From IMG/VR virus record IMGVR_UViG_3300012349_000001: a stretch of 60,532 nucleotides of DNA; one strand, given 5' to 3'. The stretch is from a virus. Under the pieces are notes generated by a model, which worked only from the letters and a program-made list of their open reading frames with translations, did not search any database and was not told the origin of the DNA. Position numbers and translations under genes: made by a program. Positions 3,224 to 40,555 of this stretch are shown one piece after another. Each line of letters begins with the position of its first letter. Positions within the stretch are counted from its first letter, which is position 1.

Positions 3224-4279
3224 ATGACAGCAAGTAACAATTATTACGGTTTTGTCGGCTTTCTTAGCCCGGCATATGCCTTTACACTTTACGATCAAAA
3301 TGGGTCACCATTGAATCTGACAGGTGTTGACGCTGCAACCATGGCATTTGAGTTGTTTGATATCAACGCACGCACAACAATACGCGGAAGCGGGACAATC
3401 ACCATTGTCAATGCTTCTCAAGGACTTGTCAGTTATCAATGGACATTTCAAGACTATGAGGCAATTTCAATTGCAAATTATAGAGCATATGCGACTGCAA
3501 AATTGCCAGGAGAAGCCGGGCCGCGTGCCTTTTTAGTTGGCACTGTTCTATTTGCTACTTTCCCAGGAGGTGCACCAGTGGCCGTACAAGATGTCAATCT
3601 CGACCAAGTAAATGGTCAAAATGTCCCCACTACCGTAAATGGTATCTCAGTTCCTAACGGGACGGTTCCAGTTGTAGTGGTAGTTCCATCAAGAGTAAAT
3701 GCGCAGTCAGGTGATTTTGCTGCTGGGGCCATAGCAGATCTCGCAACGCTTTTAGCTCTTGCAGGCACTTCAGGAGATGCCAACACCGTCAATAGCTTGA
3801 TGGGCAGGTTGACGAAGCTCAGGGACTTGCTGAGCGCATCACTTGCAGTCAATCTTGATGCGACAAACTCAACACATCTAGGCAATATCGATACTGCTAC
3901 CAGTGACCTCGTAGCCGATCTGGACACGCTCATCACGAACACAGGGAGAATACCAGCCTCTCCTGCTCAGGAAGGAGGCAATCTTGCCACGCTCATCCCT
4001 GGTGTGCAGGGATGGATCGCTGCTACAGGTCCCGGGACAGCAGGCCAGGATAACGCTCTCGCCTTTGCGCAACAAGTGCGTAAAATTGCACTCTACAATG
4101 CGAGTCCAAACAATGTGCCTCTTGAATTTGACCAGACAGCAGCGGCAACCTCTTTTCCCATTCCACCCGGGGCATTCTGGATTATCGATGGCGCTCTCTG
4201 CACTAATGTGCATGTGTTCCCATCGGTCACATTGCCAATTAACACGACCAGTGGTCTCTATGTGAAAGGATGGAAGTGA
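3224..4279 (+). CDS. tail fibre/baseplate-associated protein, 351 aa
   Basis: SD GAAGGGAG before the ATG; lies in the tail array. Function by position. Confidence 0.5.
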   Translation: MTASNNYYGFVGFLSPAYAFTLYDQNGSPLNLTGVDAATMAFELFDINARTTIRGSGTITIVNASQGLVSYQWTFQDYEAISIANYRAYATAKLPGEAGPRAFLVGTVLFATFPGGAPVAVQDVNLDQVNGQNVPTTVNGISVPNGTVPVVVVVPSRVNAQSGDFAAGAIADLATLLALAGTSGDANTVNSLMGRLTKLRDLLSASLAVNLDATNSTHLGNIDTATSDLVADLDTLITNTGRIPASPAQEGGNLATLIPGVQGWIAATGPGTAGQDNALAFAQQVRKIALYNASPNNVPLEFDQTAAATSFPIPPGAFWIIDGALCTNVHVFPSVTLPINTTSGLYVKGWK

Positions 4280-5790
4280 TGAGTCAACTTAATCCATCCC
4301 CAAAGCTACTGAATGGCAATGTGGGGATCAACACACCCTCTCCGGGCGAGGCTTTAGAGGTTGGGGCTACTACCTCAACACCAGGGCGCTTGAAGCTTAA
4401 CTCCTATCTTGAGACTGATTCAGCGGGCTCAGCCGAGGTATTGCGTATCTTTTTCAATACTCCAGCGAATTTAAATGGGAACGCTGCAAAGGCCGCGATA
4501 GCATGGTTCGATGCCTCGGTATCCACCACACAGTCAAAGGTCTGGGCGCAAGCACACGATTATCTGCACTTCTATAATCCTGTAACATTCGCTCCAAGTG
4601 CAGTCAACACGGGTACGGGCGTCATCACACTCCCTGCACAGAATGACGCTTATGTTGACAAATATCAGGTACAATTTAGCTCAAGTGGTACGCTTCCGGG
4701 TGGCCTATCGCCTGCCACTAACTATTACCTCAAACTCCTGACTTCAACGACATTTCAAATTTACAACGATTATGGACTGACGAGCCAAGTCACTTTGACG
4801 ACGCAAGGCACAGGCACGCATACTATCACGCCTAATAACGATTTTTGCAGCACTGATGGCGTGATATTCAACAGACATCGCCACTTCTCGATAGAAGTCT
4901 CTAAAGCTGATGGGCAGACAAAAACGAGTCGTTTTAGCATACCATTCGACTATGACACAACTGAGATTTCTACGTTTAGTGCCAATTTCAACGTTAATGC
5001 AGGTCTTAGCCGGATCGTGGGCGCACAGTCCAGTGACAAGCAACTGCAATTCGGGAATGCGCCGACTCCGAATCCGCGAGAGCCTGATGGGACAAATATC
5101 CGCTGGATTGTAAAGCAGGACAATGTTAGTGAAGCTGGCTCCAACGCTGGCTCAAACTTGCGGATCATTCCATGCAACGATTCCGGCGTGGCTCAAGCAT
5201 CCGCCTTGTATATCCAGCGATCCAGTGGCTTCGTTGGACTTGGTGGGAATAGCAGTCCGGGTGTACTACTGGATATTGGTGTTTTCTCGGCTGGTGGTGT
5301 GACAACACAGGCTCGAATAAATCGCGGCAATAACGTATCTCAGCAGGCACAACTACTATTCTCGACTGGCGGAGCAAACCAATGGTCTACTGGGATACGC
5401 AATGATAGTACCGAAAACTATCAGATCAGGGATAGCGTCAACTTCCGTAACCATCTTGTGTGTTATTTGACGCAAGGCATCACACAATTAGCATTAGGAT
5501 TTGCCAAGGCACTTACCACCAAATCAGGCAATTATACGGCGACCAACCAAGACCATAACATTCTGGTGGACGCTACGAGCACCGCTATCACTATCACTCT
5601 TCCCACAGCAGCCACATTAGCTGGTCAAGAGTTTCTGATAAAGGACTGGAAGGGCCAAGCTGCAACGCGCAATATCACCATTGCCACCACATCAGCGCAG
5701 ACGATTGATGGTGCTTCAACCAACGTTATCAATGCAAATTACGGGAAAGTACGTGTGGTGAGTGATGGTGCGAACTGGGCAACCATTTAG
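4270..5790 (+). CDS. tail fibre / receptor-binding candidate, 506 aa
   Basis: Overlaps the previous stop. Gly/Ser/Thr/Asn-rich with a beta-rich C-terminal region, as is usual for fibres. Confidence 0.5.
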   Translation: MEVMSQLNPSPKLLNGNVGINTPSPGEALEVGATTSTPGRLKLNSYLETDSAGSAEVLRIFFNTPANLNGNAAKAAIAWFDASVSTTQSKVWAQAHDYLHFYNPVTFAPSAVNTGTGVITLPAQNDAYVDKYQVQFSSSGTLPGGLSPATNYYLKLLTSTTFQIYNDYGLTSQVTLTTQGTGTHTITPNNDFCSTDGVIFNRHRHFSIEVSKADGQTKTSRFSIPFDYDTTEISTFSANFNVNAGLSRIVGAQSSDKQLQFGNAPTPNPREPDGTNIRWIVKQDNVSEAGSNAGSNLRIIPCNDSGVAQASALYIQRSSGFVGLGGNSSPGVLLDIGVFSAGGVTTQARINRGNNVSQQAQLLFSTGGANQWSTGIRNDSTENYQIRDSVNFRNHLVCYLTQGITQLALGFAKALTTKSGNYTATNQDHNILVDATSTAITITLPTAATLAGQEFLIKDWKGQAATRNITIATTSAQTIDGASTNVINANYGKVRVVSDGANWATI

Positions 5791-5996: not shown

Positions 5997-6803
5997 ATGT
6001 CAGATTATAGCAAGGCACTATGGATACCGAACAACAACTATTTCCCTAATACAGGCAAGAAGAGCTTCTTGATACTTCACTCTACTGCCGGGGGCTCGTC
6101 TGCTCAGGAGATAGCCAACTACTTCAAAGGTACTGAGGGCTCAAACAATCCCGTCTCAAGTCATTATGTGATTGGGAAGGATGGTACAGTCATTCAAACT
6201 GTACGGGAAGCTGACGGCGCATGGGGGAACGGTGTCGTAACTAACTCAAACTGGACTGGAAACCCAAATCTGTATACTATCAGCATAGAGCATGTGAAGA
6301 GCAGCACAGACAATTCAGAGCCTCTTACACCTGCTCAGCAAGCGGCATCTTTCGCACTTATCAAAGACATCTGCCAACGGAACGGGATAGGGATGCATGA
6401 TGCTGATAATACAACAGGCATCACTGGTCACTTTAGTATTGACCCGGTAAATAGGGCAAGATGTCCAGGTAACTTTGATTTTAATGCTTTATGGGCATAT
6501 CTATCAGGAGGAACACCAGTGGCAAACACACAACCAACACCTTCTCAGCTCAAATCAGCTCAAGACTCGTGGGACAGCGTGCTCAAGAGTACACCGGCTG
6601 GGCCAGCACCAAAGGGGACTGGCATTTACCAGGCGTGGGTAGCTGCTCTTGTGGTGTCTGGCAAGTTCTACGGTCCTCCACTAACCCGCGAGTATGACTC
6701 TGTAGATTGGAATGGCAACAAAATCACGGTCCAGGAATTTGCACATGCTAGATGTGAGTGGAACGGATCTGCCAATTGGTACGATGCACACGGGAAGATT
6801 TGA
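5997..6803 (+). CDS. endolysin, N-acetylmuramoyl-L-alanine amidase (Amidase_2/PGRP-like) with a C-terminal extra domain
   Basis: Motifs FLILHSTAGG, SSHYVIGKDGTV, DGAWGNG and YTISIEHV. Confidence 0.8.
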   Translation: MSDYSKALWIPNNNYFPNTGKKSFLILHSTAGGSSAQEIANYFKGTEGSNNPVSSHYVIGKDGTVIQTVREADGAWGNGVVTNSNWTGNPNLYTISIEHVKSSTDNSEPLTPAQQAASFALIKDICQRNGIGMHDADNTTGITGHFSIDPVNRARCPGNFDFNALWAYLSGGTPVANTQPTPSQLKSAQDSWDSVLKSTPAGPAPKGTGIYQAWVAALVVSGKFYGPPLTREYDSVDWNGNKITVQEFAHARCEWNGSANWYDAHGKI

Positions 6804-9225: not shown

Positions 9226-9630
9226 TTACCTCGCTGGAAACTGTTGAAAGAATGATGACAATTCAGGCATATCCTGAATGATTTGTGGTCGAGAGCACTG
9301 AGAAGCATCAAGCGCGTTATAGATATCGCCTGCATTCTGCTTCTCTTGTGCTTGTAGCTGTGGTTTCATGCTTGCATAGTTCGGATCTGCCATCTCAAGA
9401 TTGGTATTAGAAATAGCCGTCAAGTCATTCTCAATACGCGCCTTTTGCGTCACAAGATACTGCATACTGCATGTTGTAACGTGGCGTTCGCTATTGGCTA
9501 GAGGGACAGCAAGATGGTAATTATACCAGATAGTAAATGTAGTACCTCCTATGATGAGAATAGCGATCAATCCTATCCAGATAAGACACCCAAAACTCAC
9601 GCCTAAAAATGTTTTCTGGCCTTCGTTCAT
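9226..9630 (-). CDS. membrane protein, 134 aa
   Basis: N-terminal TM segment LGVSFGCLIWIGLIAILIIGG; co-directional array. Confidence 0.6.
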   Translation of the reverse strand: MNEGQKTFLGVSFGCLIWIGLIAILIIGGTTFTIWYNYHLAVPLANSERHVTTCSMQYLVTQKARIENDLTAISNTNLEMADPNYASMKPQLQAQEKQNAGDIYNALDASQCSRPQIIQDMPELSSFFQQFPAR

Positions 9631-9850
9631 AAAGGCCTCCTTTCAATCATACAAACGAACATCACAACGTTCTATCAAATGTATAGCCAATTCTGATTAC
9701 CTAGCAAGCCTATTGCCAATCATCACCATAACATACAAGAGCATGCCCGCGCCTCTGAGAAGCAGGAACAGATAGAGCGAGAATATGCACAAGAAGATGA
9801 GCAGAGGAGTACGCGCTAAGATTGGCTCTTCCTGAAAATCAGCTCTGTGC

Positions 9851-10072
9851 TCAGTATATATTCTCTCCTTTTGCATCTTCTTCTGCACGATAGAGGTCAT
9901 GCGTACCGTAGGGATACGGTCGGTCGGTGCTGTCAAGTGGTCTAGATCTTCGTAAAACCTGAATTGTACATCTTTCATATTCATCGCCCGCGAACATATA
10001 AACCAGAATAATAATAGCCATTGCGCCCAAGAAACAGAACATAAGAATAATATACAATAATGCGTCTATCAT
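9851..10072 (-). CDS. small membrane protein, 73 aa
   Basis: ATGA start/stop overlap with the 10069-10620 gene. N-terminal TM segment. Confidence 0.5.
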   Translation of the reverse strand: MIDALLYIILMFCFLGAMAIIILVYMFAGDEYERCTIQVLRRSRPLDSTDRPYPYGTHDLYRAEEDAKGENIY

Positions 10073-10620
10073 ATCTTGCTACCAAAGACTTTCACATCAA
10101 AATCACACGGGCCGTCTGAAGGAACGATAGGGATACGCACGCCATGGCAATGGTACTGTATGCGTCTCAGAAGCTTTTCTGAGGCCATGTGGCGTAAATT
10201 GGACACAACTATGAGCGTTGGCATGCTACCTAGCTGCTCTACCGCCTGGTGGATGAGATCGACCGTGTGATGATTAGCTGAGGCGTATATTTGCACACAC
10301 GGCTCGTCCTCTTCAGGCTCTTCCTGTGGGGCAAGAGCAGGCTGCTTCTCTGTCGTGTAGGGACTCCTGATAGCAGGCAGATCGTAGCGCGTGGGTGCTT
10401 CTCCAATGTCGAGCGCGCTAAGCATTCTCTCTTCTTCTGCTCTCCTTATTCTTCTCTGCTCTTCTTTGATGCCATCAAGGACTTCTGCTCTCCTTATGCT
10501 AGTAGCGCTACTATTCCGTTCGCTCAGAATTTCATTCGCCCACGCCTTTACCTCAGCATTCGTTTCTATATCTTGCAAAAAGCCACGTGGTGTTACTACT
10601 GCTTGCTGCATTTCTTGCAC
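10069..10620 (-). CDS. hypothetical protein, 183 aa
   Basis: GTG start preceded by GAGGAG. Only 87 nt downstream of tnpB. Confidence 0.6.
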   Translation of the reverse strand: MQEMQQAVVTPRGFLQDIETNAEVKAWANEILSERNSSATSIRRAEVLDGIKEEQRRIRRAEEERMLSALDIGEAPTRYDLPAIRSPYTTEKQPALAPQEEPEEDEPCVQIYASANHHTVDLIHQAVEQLGSMPTLIVVSNLRHMASEKLLRRIQYHCHGVRIPIVPSDGPCDFDVKVFGSKI

Positions 10621-10639
10621 GGTGATACTCTCCTCTACT

Positions 10640-10800
10640 ACATTGCCTATACATCCTGAATTGCTGTCATGTTGTTGGGGCTATTTTCATTGTGTGACGT
10701 ACTCTCGCTATGCGGCATGGGCTTCTACGGGATCACCCGTTGGCTCCGTCCGAACCGAAAGTTGTTTTTGCCCTAATCTCAAGATGTTGATAGCCGCATT
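10640..10800 (-). ncRNA. candidate omega/reRNA scaffold of TnpB; boundaries not determined
   Basis: In characterised TnpB elements the guide RNA overlaps the 3' end of tnpB and the right end. A hairpin ACGGG-TGAT-CCCGT is visible here. Confidence 0.3.
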
Positions 10801-11919
10801 GTGATCACGGTCCAGCTCACAGCCACATTCGCATGAGTGCCAGCGTTCAGATAGCTCTTTCTTCTTGACCATTCCACATCCTGAGCAGGCTTGGCTTGTG
10901 TAGGATGGATTCACAAAGAGGACAGATCTACCAGCGTTTGCAGCTTTGTATTTCACCATCTCTGTAAAATTGTACCACCCGGCATCTAAAATTGACTTGT
11001 TTAACCCGCCTTTTGCAGCAGCCCCATTGTGCAAATACTCCCCGTTCTCACCTTGTTTGGGTTTAGGAGCTTTAGAAAGGTTTGCGGGTGCTAAATCTTC
11101 AAAGACAATCACCTGATAGCGATTGACCAGCTTACGAGACTCTTTGTGATGGAAGTCCTTACGCTGGTTACGTACCTTTCGATAAGCCTTAGCAACCTGT
11201 CTAACAGCTTTCTTACGCCTATGGGACCTGCGTTTCTTGCCAGAAAGCTTTCTCTGAAGTTTGGCTAACTTCTTCTCAGCACGTCGGTAGTGTCTAGGAT
11301 TCTCGATCATACTACCATTGGAAAGAGCAGCAAAATGGGTAATACCTAGGTCAATCCCCACGTCTTCACAGGAGAGTGGTGTGGTGTTTGCCTCTACTTC
11401 GCAGGCAAACACCACGTACCATGCATCCCCCTCACGTTTGATGGTTGTTGTCTTGATACTCCCTTCAAGTGCTCTATGCATCTTGACAGTGATAGATCCG
11501 ATCTTTGAAAGGATGAGCTTGGCATGTTTCTTCTCACTTGGGTTAAACTTCCATCCTGAACCATCTGGGTAGGTAAAACTATCATAGCGGTTACGCCCTT
11601 GAAATCTAGGAAAGCCGGGCTTCTCGCCTGCTTTCACCCGCCTGAAGAAAGCTTTATATGCAAGATCAACGCGTCTCAGCACGTTAGTAAGTACATGAGC
11701 ACCAATTTCTTGATACTCAGTGCGGATCTCGTGTTTAATCTCAGGGAGATCATTTATCTGATCAAAGCAAGTAATGCCCTTCTGTGCATACTTATAGGCC
11801 TCTTTGCGCTCTTGCAGAGCCGCGTTGTACAGCTCTCGACAACGGTCCAGTGTCCATTGCAGCTTTTGGGCAACTGCCTGGTTAGGATACAGCCTATACT
11901 TATATGCTTTTATTGCCAC
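10708..11919 (-). CDS. tnpB: TnpB (IS200/IS605-family RNA-guided nuclease), 403 aa
   Basis: RuvC motifs IDLGITHFA, VIVFEDL and LDRDHNAAINI. Zinc finger CSGCG...CECGC. GTG start after AAAGGAGGT. Confidence 0.9.
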   Translation of the reverse strand: MAIKAYKYRLYPNQAVAQKLQWTLDRCRELYNAALQERKEAYKYAQKGITCFDQINDLPEIKHEIRTEYQEIGAHVLTNVLRRVDLAYKAFFRRVKAGEKPGFPRFQGRNRYDSFTYPDGSGWKFNPSEKKHAKLILSKIGSITVKMHRALEGSIKTTTIKREGDAWYVVFACEVEANTTPLSCEDVGIDLGITHFAALSNGSMIENPRHYRRAEKKLAKLQRKLSGKKRRSHRRKKAVRQVAKAYRKVRNQRKDFHHKESRKLVNRYQVIVFEDLAPANLSKAPKPKQGENGEYLHNGAAAKGGLNKSILDAGWYNFTEMVKYKAANAGRSVLFVNPSYTSQACSGCGMVKKKELSERWHSCECGCELDRDHNAAINILRLGQKQLSVRTEPTGDPVEAHAA

Positions 11920-12070
11920 GCTGTACCTCCTTTAATCGCTCAGTAAGCAGATCATCTAGTACCTGCTGCATAGTCTTTCCTTCCATTGCAGCAAGCATTT
12001 TTAGCTTTTGTTGCGATTGCTTCCACACTTTGAGGGAGGTAACCGCTTTGTTCTCTTTGATGTTCTCCAT
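11900..12070 (-). CDS. ribbon-helix-helix (CopG/Arc-like) protein, 56 aa, apparently leaderless
   Basis: The beta-helix-helix pattern KAVTSLKVW / KQSQQKLKMLAAMEG / TMQQVLDDLLTERLKE. The ATG lies about 7 nt after the -10 box. The 3' end overlaps the tnpB start by 20 nt. Confidence 0.6.
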   Translation of the reverse strand: MENIKENKAVTSLKVWKQSQQKLKMLAAMEGKTMQQVLDDLLTERLKEVQRGNKSI

Positions 12071-12106
12071 ATGGAGAATTATACTACTTTTCTCCATAGG
12101 TGTCAA
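12063..12106 (-). promoter_or_regulatory. consensus promoter TTGACA-N17-TATAAT with three ATGGAGAA/TTCTCCAT half-sites
   Basis: -35 at 12101-12106, -10 at 12078-12083. A 16-bp palindrome TTCTCCATATGGAGAA lies at 12063-12078, with an extra half-site at 12090-12097. Confidence 0.75.
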
Positions 12107-12141
12107 GAGATCATTGTAGCAGAGAGAGGAAAACAAGCAAC

Positions 12142-12170
12142 AAAAAAACCGCCGCTTTGTGGGCGACGGC
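12142..12170 (-). terminator. intrinsic terminator
   Basis: On the - strand: CCGUCGC-loop-GCGGCGG followed by U7. Confidence 0.75.
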
Positions 12171-12309
12171 TCTGGGAGACTAGACCAGATCTCCACAGCT
12201 TGGGCACTGGCCTTGGAACGCGGAGGACTCAGGCGTGTACTGCTCAAGATCCTCCTCGTGCTCTCCGCTATAGAGGGCACAATCTACGCTACAATAGACG
12301 ATATCCGTT

Positions 12310-12609
12310 TTACTGCTCTTGACCATTTTTTCTTCTATATTCACTTTGATACTTCAAGCGTTTGTCCCTGTGTTCTAGATATTTCTGATGCTGATATTTT
12401 TTGTCAGCATCAGTTCCCTTTCTCCTTTGCCGTGCGCCTTTCTGCGCCTCCACAACCTTCTCCGGATTATTGGATTTCCACCGCTCCCTGGCACCAGCAT
12501 CCCGTTGATTTCGGCATCTGTAGCAGAGGAGCCCCTTCTTCGGGAAACGATGCTCCTCTGCTTCTGCCTCTGTGCATACTTTGCAGATCCGACCCACAAC
12601 TAGACCCAC
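12310..12609 (-). CDS. zinc-ribbon protein with basic NPEK-type repeats and no nuclease domain, 99 aa
   Basis: CKVC...CYRC followed by WKSNNPEK. Resembles the N-terminal regions of the two HNH proteins at 22411 and 23254. Confidence 0.6.
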   Translation of the reverse strand: MGLVVGRICKVCTEAEAEEHRFPKKGLLCYRCRNQRDAGARERWKSNNPEKVVEAQKGARQRRKGTDADKKYQHQKYLEHRDKRLKYQSEYRRKNGQEQ

Positions 12610-12830
12610 ACGCCTGGACGGGAATTATGCGATCCTTCCTCACACCTGACTTGCAGATCAGGATCGAGAGACTCGCCAAAGAGGAGATCCCCACACTCTG
12701 TACAGGGACGTGCTAACATGACATTATTTCCCTGAGACTTTGCGACTTTTGCTGCTTTTATCTCATCAACACGATAACAATCAAACTCACCTTTTTGACC
12801 GAATGATAATGTTTTCACTGAAATTCTCAC
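12600..12830 (-). CDS. hypothetical protein, 76 aa (uncertain)
   Basis: GTG start preceded by the same intercistronic motif seen upstream of the gene starting at 13076. No clear SD. Confidence 0.3.
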   Translation of the reverse strand: MRISVKTLSFGQKGEFDCYRVDEIKAAKVAKSQGNNVMLARPCTECGDLLFGESLDPDLQVRCEEGSHNSRPGVWV

Positions 12831-12866
12831 TTTCTTATTCTGGCCCTAAGGCCTGGGAGGACTTGA

Positions 12867-13076
12867 TTACTTTCCTCGCTCTACTATGACGTTACTGAAG
12901 GCAGATTTGAGAATCTTCTCTGCCTCATCAATATCTCCAAGCTTCACAAGATCTACAGCAGCACTGTAGGCTGCATGTTGGTCTCTGGTAAGCTCCTGAG
13001 CGGCATTGCCGCTTTTAGGGGAGATAACAACGAATGCGGCTCCTGGGCCATGTGCATGAATAACGTTATGGGACAT
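12867..13076 (-). CDS. hypothetical protein, 69 aa
   Basis: SD GAAAGG before the ATG; co-directional operon. Confidence 0.55.
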   Translation of the reverse strand: MSHNVIHAHGPGAAFVVISPKSGNAAQELTRDQHAAYSAAVDLVKLGDIDEAEKILKSAFSNVIVERGK

Positions 13077-13133
13077 TTGCTTACCTTTCTGGCCCGTAGG
13101 ACTGGGAGGATTGCACCTCCCTTTTGCTGCTAT

Positions 13134-13460
13134 TTACGAATTATTAATAACTGCTTCCATTTGACTCAAATCGGGATTGATCCATTTTACTTTCAATGAA
13201 CGGCAATATTGTACAGGAGAACCATTCTTCCTTGTGTCTTCAACGGTCATTTTTACGATATGACCGTTGAATTCGAGGTCCCGACTTACGCACGTCCCAC
13301 TCAGACCGCCATCAAATCCGTACATATCGCCCATCTGGCAATTCTCTGGCAACTTTTCAAATTCGCCATTGAAACCATCAAACGAACATTTACCGCCATT
13401 CTTATTAATAAGATCAACTGCACGCTGTTCTACTCTCTGAATTGCTCGAATTTTAATCAT
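13134..13460 (-). CDS. hypothetical protein, 108 aa
   Basis: Start set at MIKIRAIQ, after SD AAGGAG. Confidence 0.55.
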   Translation of the reverse strand: MIKIRAIQRVEQRAVDLINKNGGKCSFDGFNGEFEKLPENCQMGDMYGFDGGLSGTCVSRDLEFNGHIVKMTVEDTRKNGSPVQYCRSLKVKWINPDLSQMEAVINNS

Positions 13461-13485
13461 ACCGAAATTTCTCCTTGTGCGCCTC

Positions 13486-13722
13486 TCAGGACTGCCCTGG
13501 AGGCTCACTGCACTCTACTGGACGCTCTAACCCAAACACTTTATACAGATCAACTTGATCATCAGGATGACCATGGACACCTTGGAGCCAGCGCTCATAC
13601 CTTGCCTGACCTTCAGGCGTACGAGGCTCTTCCTCCTCTTCCACCTCCTCTTGAACTTCTTCAGGGACATTTACAAGACTCTCGATCATTTCCTGCTCTG
13701 CGCCATCTTTAAGATTTGCCAT
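13486..13722 (-). CDS. acidic hypothetical protein, 78 aa
   Basis: Start set at MANLKDG, after GAAAGG and downstream of the duplicated promoter. Confidence 0.55.
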   Translation of the reverse strand: MANLKDGAEQEMIESLVNVPEEVQEEVEEEEEPRTPEGQARYERWLQGVHGHPDDQVDLYKVFGLERPVECSEPPGQS

Positions 13723-40490: not shown

Positions 40491-40555
40491 TGGACCTGGA
40501 GGGACTTGAACCCTCGATTACCTCCCGGTGTCTTTTCCCGTTAGACCACAGGCCC
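40491..40555 (-). pseudogene. tRNA-like element lacking the anticodon arm
   Basis: 7-bp acceptor stem, D arm GTCT/AGAC and T arm GAGGG-TTCAAGT-CCCTC are present. Only 13 nt lie where about 22 nt of anticodon arm plus variable loop are expected. Confidence 0.6.

Follow-up and report, generated by a model that had tools for sequence, protein, structure and literature searches.

What is a tnpB gene doing in a phage genome when it follows a small ribbon-helix-helix (RHH) gene and a consensus promoter and has no transposase beside it? The pair lies on the minus strand of IMG/VR virus record IMGVR_UViG_3300012349_000001, a stretch of 60,532 nucleotides that was analysed at full length and is called the window here. 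An earlier note, made from the letters of the window, had taken the unit for a regulated RNA-guided nuclease module, possibly domesticated by the phage, and not for an ordinary insertion sequence (IS). About 180 related loci (L numbers below) were gathered from viral, genome and metagenome collections. Comparison with them suggests that the unit is a phage-borne, non-autonomous IS200/IS605 element of the RHH (Arc-like) plus tnpB type that has lost its left end (LE). Taken as a whole, together with the mechanism proposed below, this reading is given a probability of about 0.6.

The limits of the inserted segment come from a related phage, L180 (IMGVR_UViG_3300012211_000004), which has an 88%-identical homologue of the gene downstream of the unit and no tnpB. 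Blastn homology between L180 and the window resumes at 10691. When the two window flanks are joined with a single copy of the heptamer ACAATGA, they are colinear with the L180 intergenic region through a terminator hairpin, a promoter-like TTGC..-N16-TA(C/A)AAT and the gene start; this colinearity places the ends of the insert at 12110 and 10694. The reconstructed empty site of the window reads CTCTGCT and, across the junction, ACAATGAAAATAGCCCC. L186, from a second sample, has identical junctions. The L180 site lacks the promoter, the RHH gene, tnpB and the omega-RNA scaffold together, and in relatives these lie between the element ends, so the four do travel as a unit. What the insert lacks is a left end. 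It begins 4 nt upstream of the -35 box, with ACAATGA followed by TCTC and then TTGACA, whereas in L191 TTGACA directly follows GCCGCCCCTC. No LE with a subterminal hairpin is present, the LEs of relatives being 54-95 nt long. Nothing in the window resembles an LE, and neither a TnpA nor a further tnpB was found in it; the window thus has no Y1 TnpA in cis and no multiple copies of the element, and the claim that the pair has no transposase holds.

The right end (RE) is marked by the omega-RNA scaffold. A covariance model has one match in the window, 10765-10694 (63.6 bits, E 4e-19), ending exactly at the inferred RE boundary. In 18 sequences of the window subtype the three-hairpin structure has 96.9% of cells paired, against 34-47% when the partners are slid. 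Compensatory changes on both sides are seen in 12 of the 18 pairs, and the observed values were reached by none of 500 shuffles. The 3' ends of relatives align through GTAGAAGCC, a hairpin and (G)GTAC(G/T)T(T)CAC, and then similarity stops abruptly. The window terminus agrees with this RE boundary as defined in multi-copy relatives, and the first two hairpins (H1 and H2) are intact. The position of the predicted guide, ACAATGAAAATAGCCC(CAAC), is derived from the RE boundary; its first 7 nt are the right copy of ACAATGA, at 10693-10687.

The TnpB protein looks intact. Its Pfam matches are all above cut-offs (OrfB_IS605 3.8e-27, Cas12f1-like_TNB 1e-23, HTH_OrfB_IS605 6e-12), and the domain order is that of an N-terminal HTH_OrfB, a RuvC core and a C-terminal zinc ribbon (TNB). 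As stated in the earlier note, the RuvC D/E/D triad is kept: alignment to ISDra2 TnpB (8BF8/8EXA, E 8e-51) identifies D190 (GIDLG), E274 (VFEDL) and D372 (LDRDHNAA). The zinc finger, CSGC...CEC, has the form CxxC...CxC, which is conserved across the clade. There are no signs of decay in the protein: of 122 positions conserved to at least 95%, it departs from the consensus at 3 and its relatives at 0-6. From the domains, the triad and the omega-RNA scaffold, the nuclease is predicted to be RNA-guided. Homologues number in the thousands; the closest are 65-80% identical, and those with names belong to Ktedonobacteria (Dictyobacter, Ktedonobacteraceae).

The architecture of the unit recurs. Among the approximately 100 relatives with a TnpB identity of at least 54%, at least 23 have TTGACA-N17/18-TAxAAT, 6-7 nt, and then the ATG of an open reading frame (ORF) of 50-64 aa; in 19 of them the small ORF ends exactly 20 nt inside tnpB. 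A Y1 TnpA occupies the same slot in about 45 relatives (Y1_Tnp E 1e-41 for L024), and TnpB identity in relatives with an upstream Y1_Tnp gene is 57-69%. Six copies of one family with different flanks (L111, L119, L122, L124, L126 and L141) show where such an element ends. The LE of this family starts with G(A/T)CGTCGGCCCGTAAAACCCCCG after TTTAT, its hairpin lies about 95 nt upstream of the -35 box, and the copies diverge outside it. At the 3' side the five copies with an intact end stop after GGGGTACTTCAC (the end is also written TACTTCAC). Because the shared sequence extends from the LE hairpin to the RE, the RHH gene and its promoter are inside the IS. Eight RHH families carry an LE of this type (type 1), always after TTAT. 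The families nearest to the window in RHH and omega-RNA type have an LE of about 54 nt that abuts the -35 box, GA(A/G)GA...GGCGGCGCATTCCCC-hairpin-GGGGTTAGCCGCC; it is found in L190, L191-195, L181 and L036 and in the solo-tnpB elements L131, L134, L149 and L104. The inner hairpin of this LE looks like the last one of the RE, in keeping with a role as a TnpA substrate. No element in the homologous loci was seen to end between tnpB and the RHH gene, an outcome that would have made the RHH an unrelated phage gene hit by the insertion. The RHH-tnpB arrangement is a common IS605-family variant in Ktedonobacteria-type metagenomes and not a phage invention.

The relatives contain at least two types of RHH. 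Arc-type proteins (L016, L018, L019, L101, L143, L160, L170, L030, L031) match Pfam Arc in nine of nine cases, the best at 8e-12. The window type also occurs in L190, L191, L197, L181, L107, L111, L117, L137, L036 and L011, with weaker matches to RHH_10, ParD and Antitox_RHH; the best member of this family reaches RHH_10 at 1e-6. A profile of the window type finds RK2 ParD in the PDB at E 0.06, and its comparison with the Arc-type profile by hhalign gives a probability of 69%. An RHH fold of the 56-aa protein is thus probable, not proven.

The promoter is the sole 12/12 match in 9500-13500, with its -35 box at 12106-12101 and its -10 box at 12083-12078, and the RHH ATG (12070) follows 7 nt past the -10, all as first described. 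The 20-nt overlap with tnpB is likewise present, but the tnpB Shine-Dalgarno sequence, which had been placed in that overlap, lies outside it, further upstream in the RHH ORF. The small ORFs of relatives have no Shine-Dalgarno sequence and stand at a fixed 6-7 nt from the -10, which suggests that the RHH is probably translated from a leaderless mRNA. Three half-sites had been noticed around the promoter and all three were located (Table 1). The last two form a perfect 16-bp palindrome that spans the edge of the -10, the expected transcription start and the start codon. ATGGAGAA/TTCTCCAT occurs five times in the window where 2.7 occurrences are expected, and three of the five are within 35 bp at the promoter. 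In L190, L191 and L197 the half-sites are kept, with changes that compensate each other, as in the pair ATAGAGAA/TTCTCTAT of L190. With other RHH types these positions are taken by other repeats; L019, for instance, has ATGCTAGCAT twice. The geometry conserved in the 23 or more loci, the half-sites that co-vary with RHH type and the published repression by Arc (bioRxiv 10.64898/2026.09.24.754181) make autoregulation by the RHH plausible, in agreement with the earlier proposal.

The RHH gene and tnpB do not match each other in relatedness. The closest RHHs, at 70% (L190), 66% (L191) and 78% identity over 82% of the query (L197), come with nearly the same promoter and half-sites. The nearest TnpBs (L181 80%, L019 77%, L016 and L018 73%) are paired with RHHs that have no BLAST similarity to that of the window and are mostly Arc-type, and RHHs that are 66-70% identical are paired with TnpBs at 61-69%. 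L197 1-420, on a JGI 3300054984 contig, contains a window-type RHH and a TTCTCCATATGGAGAA operator but no tnpB. Its DNA is 79.6% identical to window 12098-11937, and it is followed by a 162-aa ORF and a primase gene of the Prim-Pol/D5 type. The promoter-repressor cassette thus also exists without TnpB. Together, the incongruent identities and the L197 cassette argue that the RHH is a DNA-binding autoregulator tied to its operator, and not a partner or antitoxin of TnpB.

Table 1. Features of the RHH-tnpB unit and its surroundings (window positions)
Feature	Position	Strand	Remarks
Inserted segment, 1417 bp	10694..12110	-	promoter, RHH gene, tnpB, omega-RNA scaffold; no LE; empty site in L180
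Sigma-70-type promoter TTGACA-N17-TATAAT	12078..12106	-	12/12 match; geometry kept in at least 23 related loci
Putative RHH operator, three half-sites	12063..12097	-	ATGGAGAA 12097-12090, TTCTCCAT 12078-12071, ATGGAGAA 12070-12063
RHH-like gene, 56 aa	11900..12070	-	overlaps tnpB by 20 nt; Pfam RHH_10, ParD, Antitox_RHH ~2e-3
tnpB Shine-Dalgarno AAGGAGG	11926..11932	-	6 nt before GTG, within RHH ORF; read from sequence
tnpB, 403 aa, GTG start	10708..11919	-	RuvC triad D190/E274/D372 intact; Pfam and alignment to ISDra2 TnpB
omega-RNA scaffold, 3' part = RE	10694..10765	-	H1 10756-10742, H2 10739-10728, H3 10722-10701; ends ...GTACGTCAC
Predicted guide = adjacent phage flank ACAATGAAAATAGCCCCAAC	10674..10693	-	from RE boundary; single occurrence in window
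Direct repeat ACAATGA, 7 bp, left copy	12111..12117	-	overlaps phage -10; single copy in L180 (AAAATGA)
Phage promoter-like site TTGCTT-N16-TACAAT	12113..12140	-	recognised by its motif, function putative; L180 1321-1348 colinear TTGCCC-N16-TAAAAT
Phage terminator of upstream gene, outside unit	12145..12173	-	hairpin and T-run; homologous AGAGCCGTCGC... hairpin at same place in L180
Downstream phage gene, 183 aa	10069..10620	-	88% identical to L180 homologue; behind unit without intervening terminator

A possible mechanism can be assembled from these parts. Transcription from the consensus promoter would start at the A of the RHH ATG or beside it and give a leaderless bicistronic mRNA. The RHH would be translated first, and TnpB from its own Shine-Dalgarno sequence and the GTG within the last RHH codons, across the overlap. 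RHH dimers would then occupy the three ATGGAGAA-type half-sites, in the spacer and over the -10, start and ATG, and turn the promoter off, so that the nuclease would be made only as a burst on cell entry or, at steady state, in small amounts. Processing of the transcript's 3' end (10765-10694), with approximately 16-20 nt of flank, would yield the omega-RNA. TnpB carrying this RNA would cut the insert-free phage locus, and repair from the insert-bearing genome in a co-infected cell would copy the cassette. TnpA-dependent transposition would no longer be possible with the LE gone and the RE hairpin damaged.

Several observations weigh against this reading. First, the 56-aa protein itself matches RHH_10, ParD and Antitox_RHH below their gathering scores, so the RHH assignment made from the letters now rests on sub-threshold profile matches. 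Its AlphaFold2 monomer (from a five-sequence alignment) is a two-helix hairpin with no N-terminal strand, and Foldseek of this model against the PDB gave no significant match, the RHH proteins AtaR, MatP, CdbA and Arc being among the top weak ones. Second, IS200/IS605 transposition does not duplicate its target, and the 7-bp flanking repeat is not explained by standard IS605 biology. Third, the last omega-RNA hairpin, H3, has C.A and A.A mismatches that are unique to the window and found in none of 17 relatives, and it is missing from the minimum-energy fold. The covariance scores of the phage-borne window, L016 and L018 units are 61-66 bits, against 75-94 for most of the subtype; only L123 scores lower. 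The guide RNA may thus be impaired, and the description of tnpB as apparently active fits the protein but needs qualifying for the RNA. Fourth, the reconstructed target is preceded by CTGCT and not by the TTAT that stands before relatives with LE type 1, so that cleavage of the empty site is no more than putative; the LE-type-3 families closest to the window have heterogeneous flanks. Finally, L180, the sole relative with an empty site, differs from the guide by several mismatches and an indel and would escape cutting.

A rival reading is that of an inert remnant, an IS that lost its LE on or after entry into the phage and is now decaying, its proteins perhaps still made but its guide RNA crippled and nothing cut. 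The absent LE, the two broken pairs of H3, the low covariance scores and the target without TTAT all point this way. H3 is also the RE hairpin; a decayed H3 and a lost LE are in keeping with the lifting of selection for TnpA-mediated transposition. A remnant, however, would not readily account for an intact tnpB ORF whose deviations are within the range of relatives, a perfect consensus promoter with a perfect operator palindrome, intact H1 and H2 hairpins, and an identical copy in two samples. Simple decay is considered unlikely, though it is a serious competitor.

The window is not the only LE-less copy. An independent RHH-tnpB copy without an LE is found in L018, a 137-kb IMG/VR viral contig, between direct repeats of 11 bp, AAAGTCGATTA (sites 3770-3800 and 5219-5235). 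On the right this repeat starts at the first base past the RE; on the left it stops 7 nt short of the -35. The repeats of the window (7 bp) and of L018 (11 bp) thus both begin at the first base after the RE; the chance of an 11-mer at the L018 register within 160 nt is estimated at about 4e-5. Exact searches of IMG/VR for the reconstructed empty sites of the window and of L018 gave no match, and a search for an L018 relative with an empty site returned L018's own contig alone. In L016, a 123-kb contig, the TGA of the called upstream ORF falls within the TTGACA -35 of the RHH-tnpB unit (3815-3820), which suggests that this unit too has almost no sequence left of its promoter.

A more far-reaching idea takes such repeats as scars of TnpB cutting. 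Aberrant repair of a TnpB-cut empty site would keep the part of the protospacer proximal to the target-adjacent motif (TAM) on the LE side: the RE side would be repaired by copying of the cassette and the other side end-joined, deleting the LE. LE-less RHH-tnpB-omega-RNA cassettes of phages would then be free-standing RNA-guided homing endonuclease genes that spread without a transposase. This is offered as a speculation, and the odds are well against it.

Domestication by the phage, which the earlier note had thought possible, would make the unit a weapon or regulator, retargeted at the host chromosome or a competing phage or acting as an RNA-guided repressor, with the RHH timing its expression. 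Many close relatives do sit in phage replication modules, a unit without an LE cannot be kept for transposition, and the insert sits on a phage promoter. The guide, however, is the adjacent flank as in any IS605 element and has no second match in the window. As an exact 17-mer it is found in IMG/VR in three near-identical contigs that are unrelated to the window, where the match is preceded by CTCAG and has no TAM; by a rough estimate these matches, from one contig family, are consistent with chance. The intact RuvC triad and a guide equal to the flank also set the unit apart from TldR-type repressors, in which the RuvC site is inactivated and the guide addresses a host promoter. In the window and in IMG/VR no sign of retargeting was seen, and domestication is judged improbable.

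Still less probable is a toxin-antitoxin-like addiction module in which the RHH would neutralise TnpB by direct contact. Such a module has a precedent in archaeal RHH/MazE-TnpB pairs with a rearranged RuvC-III, which have been put forward as putative toxin-antitoxin systems acting through protein contact (Altae-Tran et al. 2023, PMC10691335). As in the window, an RHH-family gene lies directly upstream of tnpB and the pair is apparently immobile. The likeness of the window RHH to the ParD antitoxin, and the order of a small RHH gene followed by an overlapping nuclease gene, typical of type II systems, are in keeping with the idea. But the archaeal proteins have a D-to-H change in RuvC-III, whereas LDRDHNAA of the window retains its aspartates in a canonical triad, and the window unit has bacterial and phage relatives. 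The RHH is moreover exchanged independently of TnpB, and in L197 the RHH-operator cassette has no tnpB to neutralise.

That the unit is an intact mobile IS with the TTCTCCAT palindrome as its left end, as the earlier note had allowed, is hardly credible: as single-stranded DNA the palindrome could fold into a hairpin, and it is near the left boundary, but L190, L191 and L181 have the same palindrome in addition to the separate LE of about 54 nt that is missing here, it is that LE whose inner hairpin resembles the RE hairpin, the palindrome is unlike the RE of the window, and it varies between RHH types while RE sequences are conserved.

The locus probably belongs to the RHH (Arc)-regulated IS605-family elements that have already been described. 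An Arc-like RHH ORF within IS605/IS607 elements and IStrons was noted in 2023 (Zedaveinyte et al., bioRxiv 10.1101/2023.11.20.567912). A preprint of 28 September 2026 by Moon et al. reported chromatin immunoprecipitation sequencing (ChIP-seq), reporter and mutational data showing that Arc binds and represses its native promoter, also in elements that have arc and tnpB only (bioRxiv 10.64898/2026.09.24.754181). Like these elements, the unit in the window has a small, probable RHH gene inside the element, beside tnpB, and repeats over its own strong promoter. It differs in three respects. The window RHH is ParD/RHH_10-like and not Pfam Arc, although several of its closest TnpB relatives do carry a true Arc. 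Second, its genes are co-directional, overlap by 20 nt and are apparently leaderless, whereas the preprint emphasises divergent arc-tnpA and tnpB around a bidirectional promoter. Third, the window copy has no LE. A term search of the preprint found no mention of leaderless transcripts or of phage-borne or LE-less copies. By term search, the cited texts do not contain the co-directional, overlapping and apparently leaderless layout, the ParD-like RHH, the shuffling of cassettes or the LE-less phage copies.

Other known systems share parts of this design. The ISDra2 TnpB-omega-RNA complex (8BF8, 8EXA, 8H1J) has the same domain order and D/E/D triad, a scaffold that spans the RE and the tnpB 3' end, and a guide supplied by the flank next to the RE. 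The window protein is approximately 30-35% identical to it and has the CxxC...CxC zinc finger, and the unit differs in having no tnpA and an RHH gene upstream. The small autorepressors Arc and Mnt of P22, and the CopG/omega type of plasmids, are RHH proteins encoded directly behind a strong promoter with inverted or direct repeats over the -10 and start, a layout shared by the window that points to negative autoregulation; the sequence similarity to them is not significant, and what would be regulated here is the gene of an RNA-guided nuclease. Phage homing endonuclease genes of the free-standing kind (T4 Seg/Mob) similarly lie between conserved phage genes, are absent at the site of a relative and disrupt their own cut site by their presence. 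Recognition in the window would differ from theirs in being RNA-guided, and the known empty site, L180, mismatches the guide. A 2026 review discusses how OMEGA elements may home from one co-infecting phage to another, under the term 'transposon non-restorative homing' (PMC13565253).

The comparison lends support, from another bacterial lineage and with a very compact layout, to the reported existence of IS605 elements with an RHH repressor of their own, and it indicates that elements exchange the promoter-repressor cassette and its operator as one piece. RHH-tnpB cassettes are common in phage replication regions, and copies beyond movement by TnpA exist. Copies without an LE that are still able to home would be natural examples, in phages, of homing endonuclease genes guided by RNA; without such homing, the unit in the window would be a decaying insertion between a phage promoter and its gene.

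The surroundings of the unit are those of a tailed-phage genome, which encodes a large terminase, a major head protein, sheath-like and baseplate-like proteins and a DnaB-type helicase. Judged by the taxonomy of homologues, the host is probably a member of the Ktedonobacteria. The hairpin upstream of the unit had been described as a terminator that insulates it; this hairpin is conserved in insertion-free L180 and is thus phage sequence, for which reason it was also rejected as an LE. The unit is inserted 2 nt past the -10 of the phage promoter-like site. This site would now read into the unit, and the downstream gene, which follows tnpB after the 87-nt gap reported before (10621-10707), would depend on read-through across tnpB and the omega-RNA. 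Blastn of window 10000-13000 against the GenBank phage collection gave no match, and an IMG/VR search with the upstream phage protein (12310-12609) gave no relative.

Some further observations concern the relatives. L191, L192 and L194 share more than 99.6% identity over at least 3.2 kb downstream of the LE terminus, a stretch that takes in the RHH gene, tnpB and a gene for a phage-type helicase; to the left of that terminus (near L191 636-638) the three have unrelated flanks, the break in identity falling precisely on it. In L180, a 115-aa ORF just upstream of the empty site (926-1273) looks RHH-like by eye (..KRTYMVDRVVAEFIDNLPDGDRSDFVSAVLVEGI..) and has no Pfam match. Upstream of the tnpB genes of L182, L184 and L100, whose products are 75-78% identical to that of the window, a reading frame ending ..DLVAIVYSFTARLYGQRRAKRK.. 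lies at about 100-170 nt; a remnant of a serine-recombinase TnpA (IS607 type) was suspected upstream of these genes and dropped, as it had no Pfam match. L152 has two further scaffold matches (4695-4769 and 6188-6269, minus strand; 77 and 69 bits) on the strand opposite to the queried tnpB and near it, and several elements are probably clustered there. In the window itself, an Rfam scan of the whole stretch matched no omega-RNA family and a single feature, a tRNA gene at 40491-40555 on the minus strand (45.6 bits).

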